From IMG/VR virus record IMGVR_UViG_2698536392_000006: a stretch of DNA of 5,236 bases, one strand, 5' to 3'. The stretch is from a virus (taxonomy: Duplodnaviria > Heunggongvirae > Uroviricota > Caudoviricetes). Each line of letters opens with the position of its first letter. Position 1 is the stretch's first letter. This document shows, in pieces, positions 1-5,236 of the stretch. The notes beneath the pieces were generated by a model, which worked only from the letters and a program-made list of their open reading frames with translations, was not told where the DNA came from and did no database searches. The position numbers were made by a program, and so were the translations under genes.

Positions 1-225
1 AATAGCAGAGAGCTTCGTGAAAACGATAAAGCGTGACTACATCAGTATCATGCCCAAACCAGACGGGTTAACGGCAGCAAAGAACCTTGCAGAGGCGTTC
101 GAGCATTATAACGAATGGCATCCGCATAGTGCGCTGGGTTATCGCTCGCCACGGGAATATCTGCGGCAGCGGGCTTGTAATGGGTTAAGTGATAACAGAT
201 GTCTGGAAATATAGGGGCAAATCCA
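1..225 (+). mobile_element. IS2 (IS3 family) 3' portion, partial at window edge; right terminus (IRR) ends ...GGGGCAAATCCA at 225
   Basis: The encoded C-terminus (...[31 protein letters not shown]) matches my recollection of IS2 InsD (OrfB). The terminal sequence TGTCTGGAAATATAGGGGCAAATCCA matches the IS2 right end as I recall it. Nucleotides 1-225 are about 96% identical to the reverse complement of 4907-5131. Confidence 0.85.
2..214 (+). CDS. insD: IS2 transposase InsD (OrfB), C-terminal fragment; 5' end lies outside the window
   Basis: The frame is open from the window edge ([13 protein letters not shown]...) to TAG at 212-214. The integrase-core C-terminal motif [18 protein letters not shown] is typical of IS3-family OrfB. 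The ORF track start at 17 is an internal GTG. Confidence 0.85.
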
Positions 226-348
226 CCCGACCAGCTCGTCAGGCGTCAGATTTTCGTTGACCATAATCTGCTGTAGACGGTGAACAATATCCATCAGCTT
301 GATATTTTTAGTGTTATGTTGCGGTATCTCGCCTGGTATTCCGTGCAT
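226..348 (-). pseudogene. 5' remnant (41 codons, MHGIPGEIPQHNTKNIKLMDIVHRLQQIMVNENLTPDELVG...) of an unknown gene truncated by the left IS2
   Basis: ATG at 348-346 overlaps the TAA stop of the upstream DUF3850-like gene (TAATG), the same coupling pattern seen elsewhere in this operon. The frame runs uninterrupted into the IS2 terminus at 225, giving the chimeric track ORF 139..360. Confidence 0.4.
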
Positions 349-752
349 TATCCAAGCCACCCGTTTTGCTTTGCACTCTCAATCTGTTCATCTGAATAGT
401 TCCATGCTCCATCCGTGGCAACCATTGCCCCGCCAGACATCCCCGTCTCTGGTTCATACATAACAGCAAGGCCGAGCTGATGCATAATTTCATGATTAAT
501 TCTGAATACCAGACCACGCTCACTAAGTTCTTTCCAGTTCACAATCTCATATGCGCTTGTATTAAGCAGCTCAATACTTAGCAAGACATAATCTTCCAGC
601 CAGTCTGACAGGTCAGTAACATCTGTTATCCGGGCTTCAACCTTTCGCCCCGTAAACACACCCTGCACCCATTCATGCAAAATCAGCGTGTCCCCGCGCT
701 CATAATTACGGTCATTTTTCCGAAACTCTGCACGTTTCTTTCCTTCCAGCAC
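348..752 (-). CDS. DUF3850/ASCH-like (PUA-fold) protein with an uncharacterised C-terminal extension; the 5' end appears frameshifted, so the annotated GTG start is probably not the native start
   Basis: The translation GKKRAEFRKNDRNYERGDTLILHEW...GRKVEARITDV fits the ASCH/DUF3850 pattern as I recall it. The same frame continues upstream of the GTG as HEVKLHAKYFDLV, the expected N-terminal motif, with no in-frame ATG. An SD (GGAG) plus ATG lies at 799 in the +1 frame. Confidence 0.55.
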   Translation of the reverse strand: MLEGKKRAEFRKNDRNYERGDTLILHEWVQGVFTGRKVEARITDVTDLSDWLEDYVLLSIELLNTSAYEIVNWKELSERGLVFRINHEIMHQLGLAVMYEPETGMSGGAMVATDGAWNYSDEQIESAKQNGWLG

Positions 753-3084
753 AAGGTCGAAATATTTTGCGTGCAGCTTTACCTCGTGAATTTTGCCATG
801 ATGTCCACTCCATTACTGTTGAGAATCCCGGCCACTCATCAGTGACCGGATACGTGAATTTTTTCCCGTCATAATTTACGGTCGCGCCACGCGCCAGCGC
901 CTCAAGTTCCCATCGCTGAGGCCAGATGCCGTTCTGAGCAAGGTCAACACGGATACGGGTAATTTGCATACGCTCCGACCGGGTCAGCCTGGCCGATGGC
1001 GCTATTTCATTCGGTTTTAACGGGCTTCCGTTTCTTTGCTGACGGTTTGGTGTTCTCAGGCCGTGTTTTAATGCGCCCCTGAGCGCCCTCACGACCTCCG
1101 GGTCATTCCATTCGATAACACCGTCATCAACCAGATTAAGCACGGCTGCGGCGTGCTCAGAAGGTGTGGGAGCCGGTAACGAAGTATCACCACCGGTGAG
1201 CTTTCCACAGTTATTGACAGGACTCCGAGGCGCGGCGATGCCGCTTTTTAAAGTCAAAGGCTCCACGACCGGAACTTTCGGCACAATGCGCCAGTCCGTC
1301 GTTCTGGTGATATGAATATGACGCGCGCCGAGATGCGGCGCGTAAATGCCGACCACTCTCTCGACTTCTTCCTCGTACTCGTTAACTTCATCCGACGGGC
1401 TACGGGCGACTCTGACAGTCTGGCAATCGCGCGGAACATTTGCCCCACCCTGCGCACTGATATACAACGCAAAATCGCCACTGTCTGCGGCAGTGCGTGC
1501 AGCCTCGACGCGTTCGTCAAACTCATCAGCAATGCTGACGCCGCGAGGCAATTTGCGTAGTTCACGGTAAGCCCCCATTGTCGGCAGACCAACCGTTTTA
1601 AATTGCGGGATGCGCCACGTTGACGCCCATGCAGTAACAGCCGCGGCAGTATCTTTCAGAGGTCTGCCGGTATCGTTATCGAGCTGACCATCCAGTGCAT
1701 AGCCGTCGATGTTTTTTGAGATGTATTTCGCGATATACCCCGCAGCACCGCCCCGATTAAGGTGTTTTGCCTGAAAACGGTTTCGCGCAGCTCCTCTTTC
1801 GTCGCCATCCTCTTTGAGCGCATAGCGACGCATGATTTCGATAATCTGGTTACGCTGGCGCGGATTACAAAAAAGCATCATATGCCAGTGCGGCGTTCCG
1901 TCGTGGTGTGGCTCGACGACACGCAAACCGTAGACCTGTAAATCATTATCCTTGAATGCCGTGCGCATCAGGCTCCAGATACGGCAGAGATAACGCTGCG
2001 CATCCTTTGGATTAAATGCCTCATCGTTCCAGCCGTGATTTAGCTGGACGGTTTTACTTTCGCCTTTTCCAACCTGACGTGTCTGGTGATACTTTGACGG
2101 CGCGGTCAGCGTGATAAACATCCCCACATCACCCTCTGCTGCGGCGTAACGCTCAATACCGGCAATGGTGTTCATCAGCTCCATCCGGCGAATTTCAGGA
2201 TTAGAAATACTGCCCATCACCTTACTGATAAGGTCGATGCGCTCGCCGGTTTCCCTGTTTTCGAGATCACACGATTTAAGAAATTCCAGATTTGCCTGGC
2301 GGCGTGCACGCACATCACGAATGGCATGTTTACTGGCATAAGGAGAACGGTCTTTATTGACCTCCCCGACAGCAATCAGTAACGCCTCATGCCAGCGCAT
2401 ACGCTGGCCTTTAAGCTGACTAATCCACCACTCATCGTTAAACAGACGGGCAATGGCAGAATATGCCTGCCTCGTGGTCATCTGCCCTTTACGGTATTTT
2501 TTCCAGTAGAGAGGGGAAATATTGAAAGCTCGTGCAGCGCCAGCAACATGACCATACAGATGCGCCTGTGCCTCATCCGTAAACAGCGATTCTTTCTCGC
2601 CATGCGCATCCATCCAGGCATCGCAGAGTTCCTCATACATCATGAAAAGCTGTGATGAGATACGGGCGGCAAACTTTTTCAGCTCCTTGTCATTCATTCC
2701 AGGCAAACGCGCATAATGGTCACGCTCTGCCAGAAACAGCAACGACGCGTCGGTGTTCATTTCATGGCGCTGATTCACACGCTCAATGCGCGGCCATAAA
2801 CGACGCTGAAAAGTGGATGTGAGGAAATAAAACCCGTGCACCGGGCTTTTATTGCGCCGGATGTAGTCATAGCGTGAAGTAAACAGCGAGCGCAAAAAAT
2901 AAGGCAGGCGGTTAATCGTGGATAAAACACCTTGCACCTGACGCATCTCGTCACGTGTAAGAGGTCTTTCGCGCCCGACAGCCTCGCGTGGCGCGTTCCA
3001 TGCATAAGCACCAGTAAACGCCTTACCGGTGCCTGCGGCAAATGCTGACGGAGGGACAAAACGCCCTGAGGCTTTAACGGCCAT
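712..3084 (-). CDS. A: Phage P2 gpA-like replication initiation protein (rolling-circle HUH endonuclease, Rep superfamily)
   Basis: HUH motif (H-W-H) is encoded at 1882-1890. The paired catalytic tyrosines in GYIAKYISK (Y-x3-Y) are encoded at 1735-1737 and 1723-1725, as in phiX174 gpA and P2 A. Size is about 790 aa from ATG 3084 (the track's 804 aa starts at an upstream TTG). Position at the end of a B...A operon matches P2. The 3' end at 712 may be artificially extended by the frameshift at 791-794. Confidence 0.85.
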   Translation of the reverse strand: MAVKASGRFVPPSAFAAGTGKAFTGAYAWNAPREAVGRERPLTRDEMRQVQGVLSTINRLPYFLRSLFTSRYDYIRRNKSPVHGFYFLTSTFQRRLWPRIERVNQRHEMNTDASLLFLAERDHYARLPGMNDKELKKFAARISSQLFMMYEELCDAWMDAHGEKESLFTDEAQAHLYGHVAGAARAFNISPLYWKKYRKGQMTTRQAYSAIARLFNDEWWISQLKGQRMRWHEALLIAVGEVNKDRSPYASKHAIRDVRARRQANLEFLKSCDLENRETGERIDLISKVMGSISNPEIRRMELMNTIAGIERYAAAEGDVGMFITLTAPSKYHQTRQVGKGESKTVQLNHGWNDEAFNPKDAQRYLCRIWSLMRTAFKDNDLQVYGLRVVEPHHDGTPHWHMMLFCNPRQRNQIIEIMRRYALKEDGDERGAARNRFQAKHLNRGGAAGYIAKYISKNIDGYALDGQLDNDTGRPLKDTAAAVTAWASTWRIPQFKTVGLPTMGAYRELRKLPRGVSIADEFDERVEAARTAADSGDFALYISAQGGANVPRDCQTVRVARSPSDEVNEYEEEVERVVGIYAPHLGARHIHITRTTDWRIVPKVPVVEPLTLKSGIAAPRSPVNNCGKLTGGDTSLPAPTPSEHAAAVLNLVDDGVIEWNDPEVVRALRGALKHGLRTPNRQQRNGSPLKPNEIAPSARLTRSERMQITRIRVDLAQNGIWPQRWELEALARGATVNYDGKKFTYPVTDEWPGFSTVMEWTSWQNSRGKAARKIFRPCAGRKETCRVSEK
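1211..1240 (-). other. Candidate P2-type ori / gpA nick region inside the A coding sequence
   Basis: The minus strand reads CATCGCCGCGCCTCGGAGTCCTGTCAATAA. P2 ori is known to lie within gene A, and this sequence resembles my recollection of the P2 nick region. This is unverified. Confidence 0.3.
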
Positions 3085-3349
3085 GTGAGCCAAAAGCCTT
3101 TGAACAACGCCTGCTGAGTTGCTCAACCTGCGCGTTTAAATCGGCAAAAGATTTTGCGCTTCCGGTCAGAATATCGTGATGCATCAGGCCGGAAACGAGC
3201 TGGCTTAATTTCGGGTAATAACCAACCACCGCCAGCCATTCCTGACCGGCGTTTTTACCGCTTTCCGCTCTCTTTTTCTCGTGGAGAATAAACTGAAAGC
3301 TGTCACTGGTAACGACATAACGTTCGCCAATTTCAATACGAATACTCAT
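3074..3349 (-). CDS. Hypothetical protein, 91 aa (P2 orf83-like by position)
   Basis: The ATG start at 3349 overlaps the upstream TGA (ATGA). The 3' end overlaps the A start by 11 nt. Assignment is by synteny only. Confidence 0.55.
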   Translation of the reverse strand: MSIRIEIGERYVVTSDSFQFILHEKKRAESGKNAGQEWLAVVGYYPKLSQLVSGLMHHDILTGSAKSFADLNAQVEQLSRRCSKAFGSHGR

Positions 3350-3570
3350 GCCGTTCTCCGGTAATGTTTGTTTTTTGCTTCAAAGACTGACTGACAGGAA
3401 ACACAACGCGTGGCTGACGGATAAGCCGCACGACGGGCAGCAGGTATTGGCGCGTCACACTCTTCGCAAACCAGCGCAGAAGCACCGCAATGTTTTACCC
3501 TTGCCGCGTTAATCTGGCGCTCCAGTAATTCAGCCTGTTGTTCCTGAATAAAATCTACGTTGTCCGGCAT
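3346..3570 (-). CDS. TraR/DksA-family C4 zinc-finger protein, 74 aa (P2 orf82-like)
   Basis: The translation contains C-x2-C-x17-C-x2-C (CEEC...17 aa...CVSC), the canonical DksA/TraR zinc-finger spacing. The start overlaps the upstream stop as TAATG. Confidence 0.8.
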   Translation of the reverse strand: MPDNVDFIQEQQAELLERQINAARVKHCGASALVCEECDAPIPAARRAAYPSATRCVSCQSVFEAKNKHYRRTA

Positions 3571-3872
3571 TACCAGTTCCTTTTGTCGTTAAGGTTTTTA
3601 AATTCATCAGCGCAATAGCTGGCGATTTCTGTCGTTAATTTCGTCAGTTCATCCACGGAGGAGATTTGCTTGTGAAACACAGCGCGTTTAACAAGTAAAT
3701 TGACCACATCAGACAGGAGGTTTAATTCGTTCTGATAAATCGCGATAACAGACTCAGTTATTTCGCGTTTTTCTTTATCAAGACCAAGTTGAATAAGAGA
3801 CAAATCGCCATTTTTCATAACGGCGATTTTTAAGGCGTTATTCAATAATACAACTGAACGAGAACAGGACAT
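3570..3872 (-). CDS. Hypothetical protein, 100 aa (P2 orf81-like by position); AT-rich
   Basis: ATG at 3872 overlaps the upstream TGA (TGATG); the track's TTG start at 3875 is one codon further upstream. GC is about 38% by hand count, against about 54% in A. Confidence 0.55.
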   Translation of the reverse strand: MSCSRSVVLLNNALKIAVMKNGDLSLIQLGLDKEKREITESVIAIYQNELNLLSDVVNLLVKRAVFHKQISSVDELTKLTTEIASYCADEFKNLNDKRNW

Positions 3873-4096
3873 CAAAGCATCTCCCCGCGAGACAATCCGA
3901 TATTGTGAAATTTTTCCGACTCCTGACTGAGCAGCTCGACTATCTCCACGCGGGATAACTCCGCCTTTGTGATGTGGCGAATCATGGCATCAAGATGAGA
4001 AGAAAAGCGCGTCGCAGCGTCGGCCTGTGCTTCGGTTCTGGCCTGTTGCAGCAGTAATGCGTATATACCGCACTGATTTTCAGAAACTGTATGCAT
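3872..4096 (-). CDS. Hypothetical protein, 74 aa (P2 orf80-like by position)
   Basis: ATG at 4096 is preceded by GGAG with 6-nt spacing. Assignment is by synteny only. Confidence 0.55.
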
Positions 4097-4159
4097 AACT
4101 TTCTCCAGGCAAAAAGAAGCCCCGCACGATTAAGTGCGTTAAAAACTCTGGTTAATTAC

Positions 4160-4660
4160 TTAATGCAGATATTGCTCTGGTTTTACCGACGTCAGAATTG
4201 TCGGTACATACTCAAACAGGCTGAATAATTCACGTAATGCACGAAATAAAGCATCACGCCAGTAACATGACTCTTCATTAATTCGCCAGTATGGCTGGTT
4301 GAATTCTTTTTCAGTCAGTCCGGCATGCATAAATAAAGTACGACGCTGACTGACTGTTAAAAAACTAATATATGCATACTCACTTGCGCCAACCTGACGG
4401 CGTTTTGAGAATGCCCCACGCAATTCATCAATTGCACAAACCAGCCGTTCACGTTCGACGTCGTTCATTTCTTCAAAACGCATCGTTGCGTGACGTTGTT
4501 TTAACTGCGCATGAAAGCAAACTGTTAGCCGTTCGAGCTCCATCATCTGATTATAATAATCACATGTATCCTGCCAGCGAGGAACGGCAAGATGCTTACC
4601 AATTATCCGGCGCATAGCTGCTGGCTGTTTTTCAACGAGATTGAGCGTCATCACTGTCAT
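4160..4660 (-). CDS. B: P2 gpB-like replication protein (helicase-loader function in P2), 166 aa
   Basis: Assignment is by size (166 aa, as I recall for P2 B) and position in the operon two to five genes upstream of A. The ATG start overlaps the stop of the preceding small ORF (ATGA). I recognise no diagnostic motif. Confidence 0.55.
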   Translation of the reverse strand: MTVMTLNLVEKQPAAMRRIIGKHLAVPRWQDTCDYYNQMMELERLTVCFHAQLKQRHATMRFEEMNDVERERLVCAIDELRGAFSKRRQVGASEYAYISFLTVSQRRTLFMHAGLTEKEFNQPYWRINEESCYWRDALFRALRELFSLFEYVPTILTSVKPEQYLH

Positions 4661-4827
4661 TTCCAGGCCCTCCGGCTTTTCAGAAAGGTCAGAGCCTTTT
4701 TTAACGGACTCTGTTTTTTGGTGCGGATAATGATTCCCTTACGCCCCTTACCGTGGGTGATGGTGAAGTCAATCGCCCTTGGGCTTTCGTTACGCAATAA
4801 CTGAGCAATACAACGAGGTTCCGGCAT
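4657..4827 (-). CDS. Small hypothetical protein, 56 aa (P2 orf78-like by position)
   Basis: ATG at 4827 is preceded by a strong SD, AGGAGGAG (4830-4837). The track's 82-aa version starts at a TTG abutting the IS2 end and is probably an artefactual extension. Confidence 0.5.
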   Translation of the reverse strand: MPEPRCIAQLLRNESPRAIDFTITHGKGRKGIIIRTKKQSPLKKALTFLKSRRAWK

Positions 4828-4829
4828 AA

Positions 4830-4837
4830 CTCCTCCT
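4830..4837 (-). promoter_or_regulatory. Shine-Dalgarno sequence (AGGAGGAG) for the orf78-like gene
   Basis: The purine-rich anti-SD complement lies immediately upstream of ATG 4827. Confidence 0.6.
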
Positions 4838-4906
4838 GAAACAGAGCCGGTTTTTAGCCATGTCCGGCACATGGTCTTGTGGTAAGATCGAATCGCCAAA
4901 AACAAC

Positions 4907-5236
4907 TGGATTTGCCCCTATATTTCCAGACACCTGTTATCACTTAACCCATTACTGGCTTGCTGCCGTAGATATTCCCGTGGCGAGCGATAACCCAGTG
5001 CACTATGCGGATACCATTCGTTATAATGCTCGAACGCCTCTGCAAGGTTCTTTGCTGCCGTTAACCCGTCTGGTTTGGGCATGATACTGATGTAGTCACG
5101 CTTTATCGTTTTCACGAAGCTCTCTGCTATTCCGTTACTCTCCGGACTCCGCACCGCCGTGTTCTTCGGTTCAAGTCCCAACATCCGGGCGAACTGGCGT
5201 GTTTCATTAGTCCGGTAGCATGAACCATTATCCGTC
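4907..5236 (-). mobile_element. IS2 variant, 3' portion, partial at window edge; right terminus (IRR) abuts the prophage DNA at 4907
   Basis: The plus strand from 4907 reads TGGATTTGCCCCTATATTTCCAGACA, the reverse complement of the IS2 right end. It shows about 8 mismatches in 225 bp against the left copy. Confidence 0.85.
4918..5235 (-). CDS. insD: IS2 transposase InsD (OrfB) variant, C-terminal fragment; 5' end lies outside the window
   Basis: The frame is open from the window edge ([40 protein letters not shown]...) to a stop at 4918. It shows amino-acid differences from the left copy (H to Y, R to Q, C to S). Confidence 0.85.

Follow-up and report, generated by a model that had tools for sequence, protein, structure and literature searches.

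The replication-gene region of a P2-like prophage from Shiga-toxin Escherichia coli, cut on each side by a separate IS2

Simple insertions of IS2 in the chromosomes and prophages of E. coli are characterised by a length of 1331 bp, the IS2 termini, an orfA/orfB programmed frameshift, an rve DDE transposase and a 5-bp target duplication, with inverted repeats of 42 bp on the left (IRL) and 41 bp on the right (IRR) (PMC3299598). The IRL was reported to be without donor function, an IS2 bearing two left ends giving no minicircles (PMC3299598), and the IRR has an outward −35 that is able to form fusion promoters (PMC9330008). In the composite transposons Tn10 and Tn5, two inverted copies of one IS lie around a few kb of other genes. 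In P2 and Wphi the early operon has the order cox-orf78-B-orf80-81-82-83-A-orf91, and the A-Q interval of P2-like prophages is a variable anti-phage hotspot (Rousset et al. 2022, PMC9122126).

The locus studied here shares with Tn10 and Tn5 the two inverted IS copies around a few kb of other genes, but differs from them in that there is no shared duplication round the unit, the bracketed DNA is native and the outward ends are both IRL, which are not usable as donor according to PMC3299598. Each IS2 copy has all the above features of simple insertions, with the difference from known IS2 copies that the right-hand one is a mosaic, including one base of the IRR. Compared with the early operon of P2 and Wphi, the gene order and content from orf78 to orf91 are the same, whereas IS2 and an extra ~0.9 kb (with ORFs of 198 aa and 68 aa) are present here between cox with the early promoter and orf78; moreover, orf91 here differs from that of Wphi in being a longer DUF3850+DUF7415 fusion, matching gp91 and the N-terminus of gp92. 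As to the A-Q hotspot, the left-hand IS2 and a third IS2 of the sister strains lie there, adjoining lineage-specific ORFs of 313 aa and 68 aa, and this cargo matched no PADLOC defence model and no Pfam family. IS2 insertions of this sort are well known, and the locus does not represent a novel mobile unit.

The replication genes and their prophage

The window, i.e., the whole stretch of 5236 bp that was analysed, is the entire draft contig LNFT01000176.1. Its own strain (GCA_001608265.1) provides this 5.2-kb contig only; for what flanks the segment and how it is oriented, we relied on near-identical closed genomes from this lineage, those of the Shiga-toxin E. coli (STEC) O165:H25 strain 2012C-4227 and of strain 2013C-4830 (L001, L002). 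The sister strains 90-3040 and 2013C-3492 (L003, L004), a relative with an intact A protein (L005) and a further assembly (L011) were also compared. The features of the window are as follows.

1-225, plus strand: last 225 bp of IS2 copy 1 (IS2 positions 1107-1331), canonical type (from the terminus and the 1331-bp IS2 in L001/L002)
2-214, plus strand: C-terminus of OrfB of IS2 copy 1 (rve_3, E=1e-13)
185-225, plus strand: IRR of IS2 copy 1, 41 bp (length from PMC3299598)
226-230: CCCGA, inner copy of the target duplication of IS2 copy 1 (same pentamer at the outer IRL end in L001/L002; single CCCGA at the empty site of L003)
226-348, minus strand: first 41 codons of a 68-aa ORF downstream of orf91, cut by IS2 copy 1 (phrog_11386, E=7e-40)
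348-799, minus strand: orf91-like, DUF3850/ASCH plus DUF7415 (Pfam DUF3850 1e-17, DUF7415 2e-14, ASCH 2e-10; alignment with L005 and Wphi)
712-3084, minus strand: gene A, rolling-circle replication initiator/endonuclease (Phage_GPA, E=1e-123)
791-794: run of four T (A4 on the coding strand; T5/A5 in intact relatives), a 1-nt deletion where the 3' end of A and the start of orf91 overlap (alignment with L005)
3074-3349, minus strand: orf83-like, DUF5405 (Pfam, 9e-13; collinear with Wphi gp83)
3346-3570, minus strand: orf82-like, TraR/DksA C4 zinc finger (zf-dskA_traR, 3e-11; Wphi gp82)
3570-3872, minus strand: orf81-like, DUF5405 (5e-34; Wphi gp81)
3872-4096, minus strand: orf80-like, DUF2732 (4e-10; Wphi gp80)
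4160-4660, minus strand: gene B, P2 replication protein B (phrog_235, 9e-103; PF26815 Phage_RepB on the identical product)
4657-4827, minus strand: orf78-like, 56 aa (phrog_273, 4e-39; Wphi gp78 at the same position)
4902-4906: ACAAC, inner copy of the target duplication of IS2 copy 2 (same pentamer beyond the outer IRL end in L001/L002/L011; single ACAAC at the empty site of L003)
4907-5236, minus strand: last 330 bp of IS2 copy 2 (IS2 positions 1002-1331), mosaic type (alignment of seven IS2 copies)
4907-4947, minus strand: IRR of IS2 copy 2, with one change inside, at 4933 (same alignment)
4918-5235, minus strand: C-terminus of OrfB of IS2 copy 2 (rve_3, 4e-18)

Over 98% of its length, the interior (226-4906) is 96-97.5% identical to genomes of P2, Wphi and other members of Peduovirus, with the genes on the minus strand and collinear in the order orf78-B-orf80-81-82-83-A-orf91. 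Gene B is collinear with Wphi gpB, which is annotated as 'required for lagging strand synthesis'. The published nick-site region of P2, with the origin inside A, presumably resembles GCGCCTCGGAGTCCTGTCAA, the reverse complement of which is located at about positions 1208-1232 of the window. The first-pass annotation of this DNA described a complete B...A operon, which goes a little too far: the early promoter and cox are outside the interval, and the 1-nt deletion affects A/orf91. In L001, cox, C and the promoter region are located beyond the right-hand IS2 and outside the window, with 1331 bp of IS2 between them and orf78. At the other end, the phrog_11386 ORF of 68 aa, uninterrupted in L003, L004 and L005, has a chimeric version that reads on into IS2 as far as position 139.

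In the closed genomes a full-length P2-like prophage of ~31 kb is present between pflA and pflB, with the order pflA, int, C, cox, two extra ORFs, IS2, orf78-B-...-A-orf91, IS2, a 313-aa hotspot gene, Q, P, O, N, ... tail genes, ogr and pflB. Two readings had been offered before, an otherwise intact prophage hit twice by IS2 and a remnant reduced to its replicon, with the suggestion to look for P2 genes beyond the IS2 copies. Such genes continue on both sides in the closed genomes (the hotspot gene, Q, P and O on one side and cox, C and int on the other), and of the two readings the first is correct. The words 'otherwise intact', however, do not hold, because besides the A/orf91 frameshift in the window the closed relatives have lost T-U-D by deletion and have frameshifts in cox and in the tail fibre.

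The deletion at 791-794 is the sole indel between the window interior and L005. It is common to the window and L001-L004, and it is therefore older than the IS2 insertions. The frameshift swaps the last 4 residues of A and adds 22, giving a reading frame of 790 aa in place of 761-768. In this A of the window Phage_GPA is present as a complete domain, with residues 1-764 agreeing with the intact protein of L005 and residues 1-760 with that of Wphi. PGAP, the annotation pipeline of NCBI, treats this A as a pseudogene ('replication endonuclease, missing C-terminus'). The native ATG of orf91 (797-799) is put out of frame by the deletion, the start chosen by PGAP being ATT at 791.

The IS2 copies, their target duplications and the empty sites

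A repeat search gave an inverted repeat with arms at 1-225 and 4907-5131, each of 225 nt, 96% complementary and 4681 nt apart. Direct counting gave exactly 8 mismatches in the 225 positions (at IS2 positions 1225, 1239, 1269, 1277, 1278, 1281, 1282 and 1305), and 1-225 and 4907-5236 are IS2 right ends, in agreement with the earlier description of inverted IS2 right ends facing inward with about 8 mismatches. The right terminus ...GGGGCAAATCCA closes both arms, at 225 and at 4907. The window holds the IRR-proximal 225 bp of copy 1 and 330 bp of copy 2, both of which have the full length of 1331 bp in the closed genomes, where they are annotated as 'IS3-like element IS2 family transposase' and where PGAP gives a 'programmed frameshift' (orfA/orfB) on both. 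In L001/L002 the termini were matched for both copies, with the IRL of 42 bp (TAGACTGG...) and the IRR of 41 bp (...GCAAATCCA). The full transposase products carry HTH_Tnp_1, HTH_21, rve and rve_3, with the window fragments corresponding to the rve_3 C-terminus.

Over the full 1331 positions, 10-11 differences separate the two copies, with 0-3 of them in the first ~1150 bp and almost all of the divergence in the last ~180 bp. Copy 2 is a mosaic, in which a canonical IS2 body is followed by a last ~180 bp that matches, at 8 diagnostic positions, a diverged IS2-like element labelled by PGAP merely as 'IS3 family transposase'. This right-hand copy is 99.2-99.3% identical to IS2 copies of many unrelated genomes, and full-length elements that are 99.9-100% identical to it were found in 2012C-4227 and 2013C-4830 alone. 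The mosaic type is present once more elsewhere in the genome, in rtcB, giving at least two mosaic copies in one genome.

In L001 and L002 each IS2 is flanked by its own direct 5-bp duplication, CCCGA/CCCGA and ACAAC/ACAAC, respectively, as had been proposed to be looked for at the outer ends. In the sister strains 90-3040 and 2013C-3492 the same prophage is present at the same chromosomal site with both IS2 sites empty, and their interior differs from that of the window by one base. When both IS2 copies and one copy of each duplication are removed in silico from L001, the sister sequence is obtained with 1 mismatch in 6328 nt. From the separate duplications and this restoration of the empty sites it follows that, very probably, two independent simple IS2 insertions took place in a resident P2-like prophage by copy-out/paste-in transposition, with the bracketed genes unmoved and uninverted.

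It is noted that independence had been claimed in the first-pass annotation, and the claim stands by the duplication of each copy and by the empty sites, found in related genomes of the kind that it had suggested for comparison. Its reasoning from the sequence difference between the copies is weak, since they differ nearly only in the mosaic tract. Moreover, the test that it proposed, with identity elsewhere along the copies taken to mean a single event, would give the wrong answer, because the differences are confined almost wholly to the last ~180 bp and the copies are near-identical elsewhere yet independent.

Of 5426 complete genomes, 2 have the junctions, and each of these has both; they are also present in several draft assemblies. 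In the search of the 5426 complete genomes, neither insertion was found without the other. A third independent IS2 is present in the same prophage of the sister lineage (L003), with the duplication TTAAC.

Proposed history and effect on expression

Based on the above data, we propose that, in a lineage of Shiga-toxin E. coli rich in IS2 (O165:H25 and relatives), a Peduovirus prophage resident between pflA and pflB was entered independently by two IS2 copies through IS3-family copy-out/paste-in, with a 5-bp duplication made each time. One IS2 would have inserted into the intergenic DNA just upstream of orf78 and the other into the small ORF downstream of orf91, within the variable A-Q region. 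Their opposite orientation with the right ends inward would be due to chance, and orf78-B-...-A-orf91 would thereby have become bracketed, with no move or inversion since then and with the bracketed genes still in their native place and orientation. With the upstream IS2 in place, the replication genes would be set apart from cox and the early promoter by 1.3 kb of foreign DNA. From what is generally known of IS insertions in operons, this IS2 probably lowers or abolishes the expression of the replication genes on derepression, and the separation by IS2 together with the other lesions would leave a defective and immobile prophage.

Most simply, the insertions represent neutral decay in a silent region of a genome with ~27 IS2 copies. 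The number of IS2 matches per genome is 27-29 in these strains versus a median of 3. Two IS2 in a ~31-kb prophage exceed what is expected by uniform chance (Poisson P ~0.013 with 28 copies in 5.1 Mb), and some target preference or selection may be behind this excess. With three independent IS2 insertions, several frameshifts and one deletion across two sister clades, the prophage is a small but well-ordered case of ordinary decay in Shiga-toxin E. coli of an IS2-rich lineage. Of small importance in itself, the contig is a piece, bounded by IS copies, of an ordinary P2-like prophage in decay.

By contrast, it could be supposed that the arrangement is a selected rewiring or domestication, in which, through the upstream IS2, B and A are no longer coupled to the C/Cox immunity switch, with a potentially harmful in-situ replication system silenced or the genes driven by IS2 read-through, and which is kept for host benefit. 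This would be consistent with the excess of IS2 in the prophage, with the outward −35 of the IRR that can build fusion promoters (PMC9330008) and with the transcription of the right-hand IS2 in the direction of B and A. However, no sigma-70-like promoter spanning either IS2/phage junction was found, and by eye there is at both junctions no −10 hexamer at 16-18 bp from the outward IRR −35. Furthermore, the additional inactivating lesions in the same prophage (A/orf91, cox, T-U-D and tail fibre) have the pattern of neutral decay, and the arrangement is limited to one small clade. Such a selected role is therefore improbable. With similarly low probability, the mosaic IS2, as a recombinant specific to the lineage, could have an altered activity of its right (donor) end and could have contributed to the ~nine-fold IS2 expansion of the clade, and its insertion upstream of orf78-B-A, in the same reading direction, might leave the replication genes expressed outside immunity control.

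Rearrangement and assembly alternatives

If only one IS2 had inserted and the second copy had arisen by duplication or inversion, or if RecA-mediated inversion had already flipped the segment, the near identity of the first ~1150 bp of the two copies would be as expected. This is evidently inconsistent with the two different duplications, which are intact and would have been swapped by an inversion, with the orientation of the segment, for which L001, L002 and L011 show the native state when cox/C/int and Q/P are taken as reference, and with the two sequence types of the copies, another copy of the mosaic type being located in rtcB. It is thus very unlikely that a single event gave the pair. 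RecA-mediated inversion between the copies, suggested earlier as possible, is so in principle but is not seen: in the three of three readable assemblies (L001, L002 and L011) the orientation is native, and neither an inverted orientation nor swapped duplication halves were found.

The remnant reading would imply that IS2-mediated deletions stripped the rest of the phage and left only B...A, and it would accord with the window, which beyond the module shows IS2 alone, and with the other lesions that the prophage does bear. In the closed genomes with identical interior and junctions, however, the ~31-kb gene set of P2 type, from int to ogr, continues on both sides, a 173-kb draft contig shows the same continuation of P2-type genes, and the intact duplications speak against IS-mediated adjacent deletion, so that this reading too has a very low probability.

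Still less probable, and close to negligible, is a composite transposon or mobilised mini-replicon, in which the IS2 pair moves the P2 A/ori/B module as a unit and the module arrived by transposition: while two IS copies do flank a self-contained replication module, the duplications are separate for each IS, with CCCGA at one outer flank and ACAAC at the other, the module continues the gene order of the prophage around it and is uninterrupted in the sister strains, it has a single occurrence per genome, and both outer ends are the IRL, reported to be without donor function (PMC3299598). The earlier judgement that composite transposition is unlikely is thus borne out, with duplications that flank each IS rather than the whole unit.

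Finally, it is hardly conceivable that the inverted IS2 ends were made by a short-read assembler fusing repeat fragments to a prophage contig: the window is indeed a whole 5236-bp draft contig that ends inside a multi-copy repeat, but both phage/IS2 junctions are base-for-base identical in the two closed genomes, one of which is reported to be a closed-chromosome assembly (PMC4683243), and in the 173-kb draft contig. The contig ends within the IS2 repeats because the assembler stopped there, and the IS2-bounded arrangement is real because the closed genomes show the same arrangement. Note also that a short draft contig may mimic a composite transposon or a mini-replicon when its ends lie in IS repeats. 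The window differs from the closed genomes at two bases, 5085 and 5211, both within the IS2 part, which would fit an artefact in the repeat, and these two bases may be consensus noise.

The contig and its gene content

The whole of the 5236-bp contig LNFT01000176.1 (draft assembly GCA_001608265.1), taken as its reverse complement, makes up the window. Multi-copy repeats stop short-read assemblers, which is why IS2 sequence lies at either end. Another draft contig, NJSL01000083.1 (5021 bp), represents the same fragment, likewise running from IS2 to IS2. A repeat search of the window gives an inverted repeat with arms 1-225 and 4907-5131, 96% complementary and spaced by 4681 nt, and direct comparison gives exactly 8 mismatches between the arms in 225 nt, in agreement with the coordinates, orientation and mismatch count reported in the first-pass annotation. 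Both arms are closed by the IS2 right terminus, ...GGGGCAAATCCA at 225 and its complement starting at 4907, and both code for the rve_3 C-terminal portion of an IS3-family transposase. Across 98% of its length, the interior (226-4906) matches P2, Wphi and numerous further Peduovirus genomes at 96-97.5% identity.

Features of the window
4907-5085: mosaic 3' tract of the right IS2, IS2 positions 1153-1331 (whole element at 24682-26012 of L001, the locus of closed genome 2013C-4830)
4657-4827, minus strand: orf78
4160-4660, minus strand: B
3872-4096, minus strand: orf80, DUF2732
3570-3872, minus strand: orf81, DUF5405
3346-3570, minus strand: orf82, TraR-DksA zinc finger
3074-3349, minus strand: orf83, DUF5405
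3084 down to 712, minus strand: A, Phage_GPA
348-799, minus strand: orf91, DUF3850-ASCH
226-348, minus strand: first 41 codons of a 68-aa ORF

Within gene A, GCGCCTCGGAGTCCTGTCAA (minus strand, window about 1208-1232) appears to match the P2 origin nick-site region. In the window, orf91 is a 150-aa DUF3850+DUF7415 protein (348-799), whereas in Wphi it is split as gp91 (93 aa) and gp92 (64 aa) (Wphi locus L009, 2570-3085), a fusion or split difference among close relatives. The window has no Rfam match to a structured RNA at the gathering threshold, and its base composition shows no discontinuity other than at the IS2/phage boundaries.

Two insertions in a native prophage gene order

The interior is identical, or different by one base, in four complete E. 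coli genomes. In two of them, 2013C-4830 and 2012C-4227, the latter an STEC O165:H25 strain with a closed chromosome (PMC4683243), both IS2 copies stand at exactly the sites of the window. Each junction is present in 2 of 5426 complete genomes, the same two and always together, and also in a few more drafts; with both junctions searched in the complete genomes, no genome with one insertion alone was found, the same two being returned each time. The window differs from these two genomes at only two bases, 5085 and 5211, both within the right IS2. Both positions lie near the contig end, in the repeat, and the window base at 5085 is the canonical IS2 base; the differences may be genuine SNPs or reflect a conversion tract of shorter length, or they may be consensus noise arising when short reads are assembled over a repeat of about 27 copies.

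In 2013C-4830 the segment lies within a full-length P2-type prophage in the pflA-pflB interval. Starting next to pflA, this prophage runs through int, C, cox, ORFs of 198 and 68 aa, IS2 and orf78-B-...-A-orf91; then come IS2, an ORF of 313 aa, Q, P, O, N, M, L, the lysis and tail genes and ogr, with pflB beyond. Since gene order and strands are those of P2 and Wphi, the IS2-bracketed genes are in their native place and orientation. The suggestion of a prophage remnant reduced to its replicon is thus wrong for the closed relatives, where P2-type genes are present on both sides of the IS2 pair.

Both IS2 copies measure 1331 bp, and a separate direct 5-bp duplication flanks each of them, CCCGA at the left one and ACAAC at the right one, as is also seen at L011, a locus of another assembly with both insertions. 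The sister strains 90-3040 and 2013C-3492 harbour this prophage at an identical location and have neither insertion, CCCGA and ACAAC each occurring once at the empty positions. When both IS2 copies and one copy of each duplication are removed in silico from 2013C-4830, the sister sequence is obtained with 1 mismatch in 6328 nt. Based on these duplications and empty sites, which are the real evidence of independence, we read the arrangement as two independent simple IS2 insertions. The first-pass annotation had reached the same conclusion from the divergence of the copies, and had held that identity elsewhere would indicate a single event. That reasoning is weak, because the copies are nearly identical elsewhere and yet the insertions are independent.

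Two other arrangements were considered. An inversion between the copies, which the annotation regarded as possible through RecA, would swap the inner halves of the duplications. The halves are unswapped and the inversion is seen in no sequenced genome, although RecA-dependent recombination between the two inverted copies could in principle flip the 4.7 kb that they enclose; the window unit lacks the tested features of an invertible segment. A composite transposon, already thought unlikely, would be expected to carry foreign cargo and to have a single duplication bracketing the entire unit, and neither is found: each IS2 has a separate duplication and the cargo is native. Both outer ends are IRL, and the tested features of such a transposon are absent from the unit.

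By contrast, the window elements show all the tested defining features of IS2, and the interior shows the collinear gene order of the P2 early gene block. The two simple insertions are a textbook case of IS2 in a P2-like prophage, are already annotated as such in RefSeq, and present nothing new in kind; the mosaic 3' end of one IS2 and the additional ORFs that separate cox from orf78 are no more than small oddities.

The mosaic IS2 copy and the accessory genes

Comparison of the full-length copies gives 10-11 differences in 1331 positions; 9 of them fall in 1153-1305, a clustering with a binomial P of ~1e-7. Alignment with other IS2 copies shows that the left IS2 is canonical, while the right IS2 consists of a canonical body and a 3' tract matching, at 8 diagnostic positions, a diverged IS2-like element of strain LC-1302-2020, with one diagnostic position lying within IRR (window 4933). 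In 2013C-4830 another mosaic copy lies within rtcB (locus L007, 301-1631), and 2012C-4227 and 2013C-4830 were the only genomes found to have elements 99.9-100% identical to the mosaic IS2 along its full length.

In Wphi cox and orf78 are adjacent, whereas in this phage lineage they are separated by an extra ~0.9 kb, possibly representing a moron or a further site of variation. Directly past the right IS2 (L001, 26038-26843) lie the 198-aa ORF and the opposite-strand 68-aa ORF, for which no Pfam, PHROG or PADLOC match was found. The 313-aa protein of the A-Q cargo (L001, 17566-18507) belongs to phrog_5937, a family of unknown function, and the A-Q region is a known variable hotspot in P2-like prophages (PMC9122126). 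A defence role was considered for the cargo (313, 68, 198 and 68 aa) and orf91 and was rejected: there is no PADLOC match, the cargo has no Pfam match, and its PHROG matches are to unknown-function families only.

Expression and other lesions

In the P2-type layout the early promoter and cox lie upstream of orf78-B-...-A, and here the right IS2 stands between them. Since IS insertions in operons are usually polar, the early promoter would probably no longer drive proper expression of the replication genes. An outward -35 is present in the right end of IS2 and can give rise to fusion promoters (PMC9330008). A consensus scan found no promoter-like site across 225/226 or 4906/4907, and inspection by eye likewise spoke against a fusion promoter at the junctions: at a spacing of 16-18 bp from TGGAAA, the presumed outward -35, the sequences are TTGTTT and CCGACC, which are not -10-like.

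A 1-nt deletion at window 791-794 (A5 to A4 on the coding strand) lies where the 3' end of A overlaps the beginning of orf91 (712-802). It replaces the last 4 residues of the A protein and adds 22, giving 790 aa and a PGAP pseudogene flag, and it shifts the ATG of orf91 out of the reading frame. The deletion is common to all four near-identical closed genomes and, because the empty-site sisters share it, predates the IS2 insertions. In the IS2-bearing genomes, moreover, cox is frameshifted (A8 to A7; L001, 26853-27208), the tape-measure gene T is fused to D by a deletion with loss of U (locus L006, 5339-7632), and a tail-fibre gene is frameshifted (L001, 2269-4586), while sister strain 90-3040 retains intact copies of T, U, D and cox. 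Given the cox, tail and A/orf91 lesions, the IS2-bearing clade very likely harbours a defective prophage.

The sister clade, 90-3040 and 2013C-3492, has the 313-aa gene disrupted by an independent third IS2 whose duplication is TTAAC (sister-clade locus L003, 641-1971). IS2 matches number 27-29 per genome in all four strains, compared with a median of 3. Two IS2 in ~31 kb are modestly above the uniform-chance expectation (P about 0.013), an excess of no particular note in prophage DNA that is silent and dispensable.
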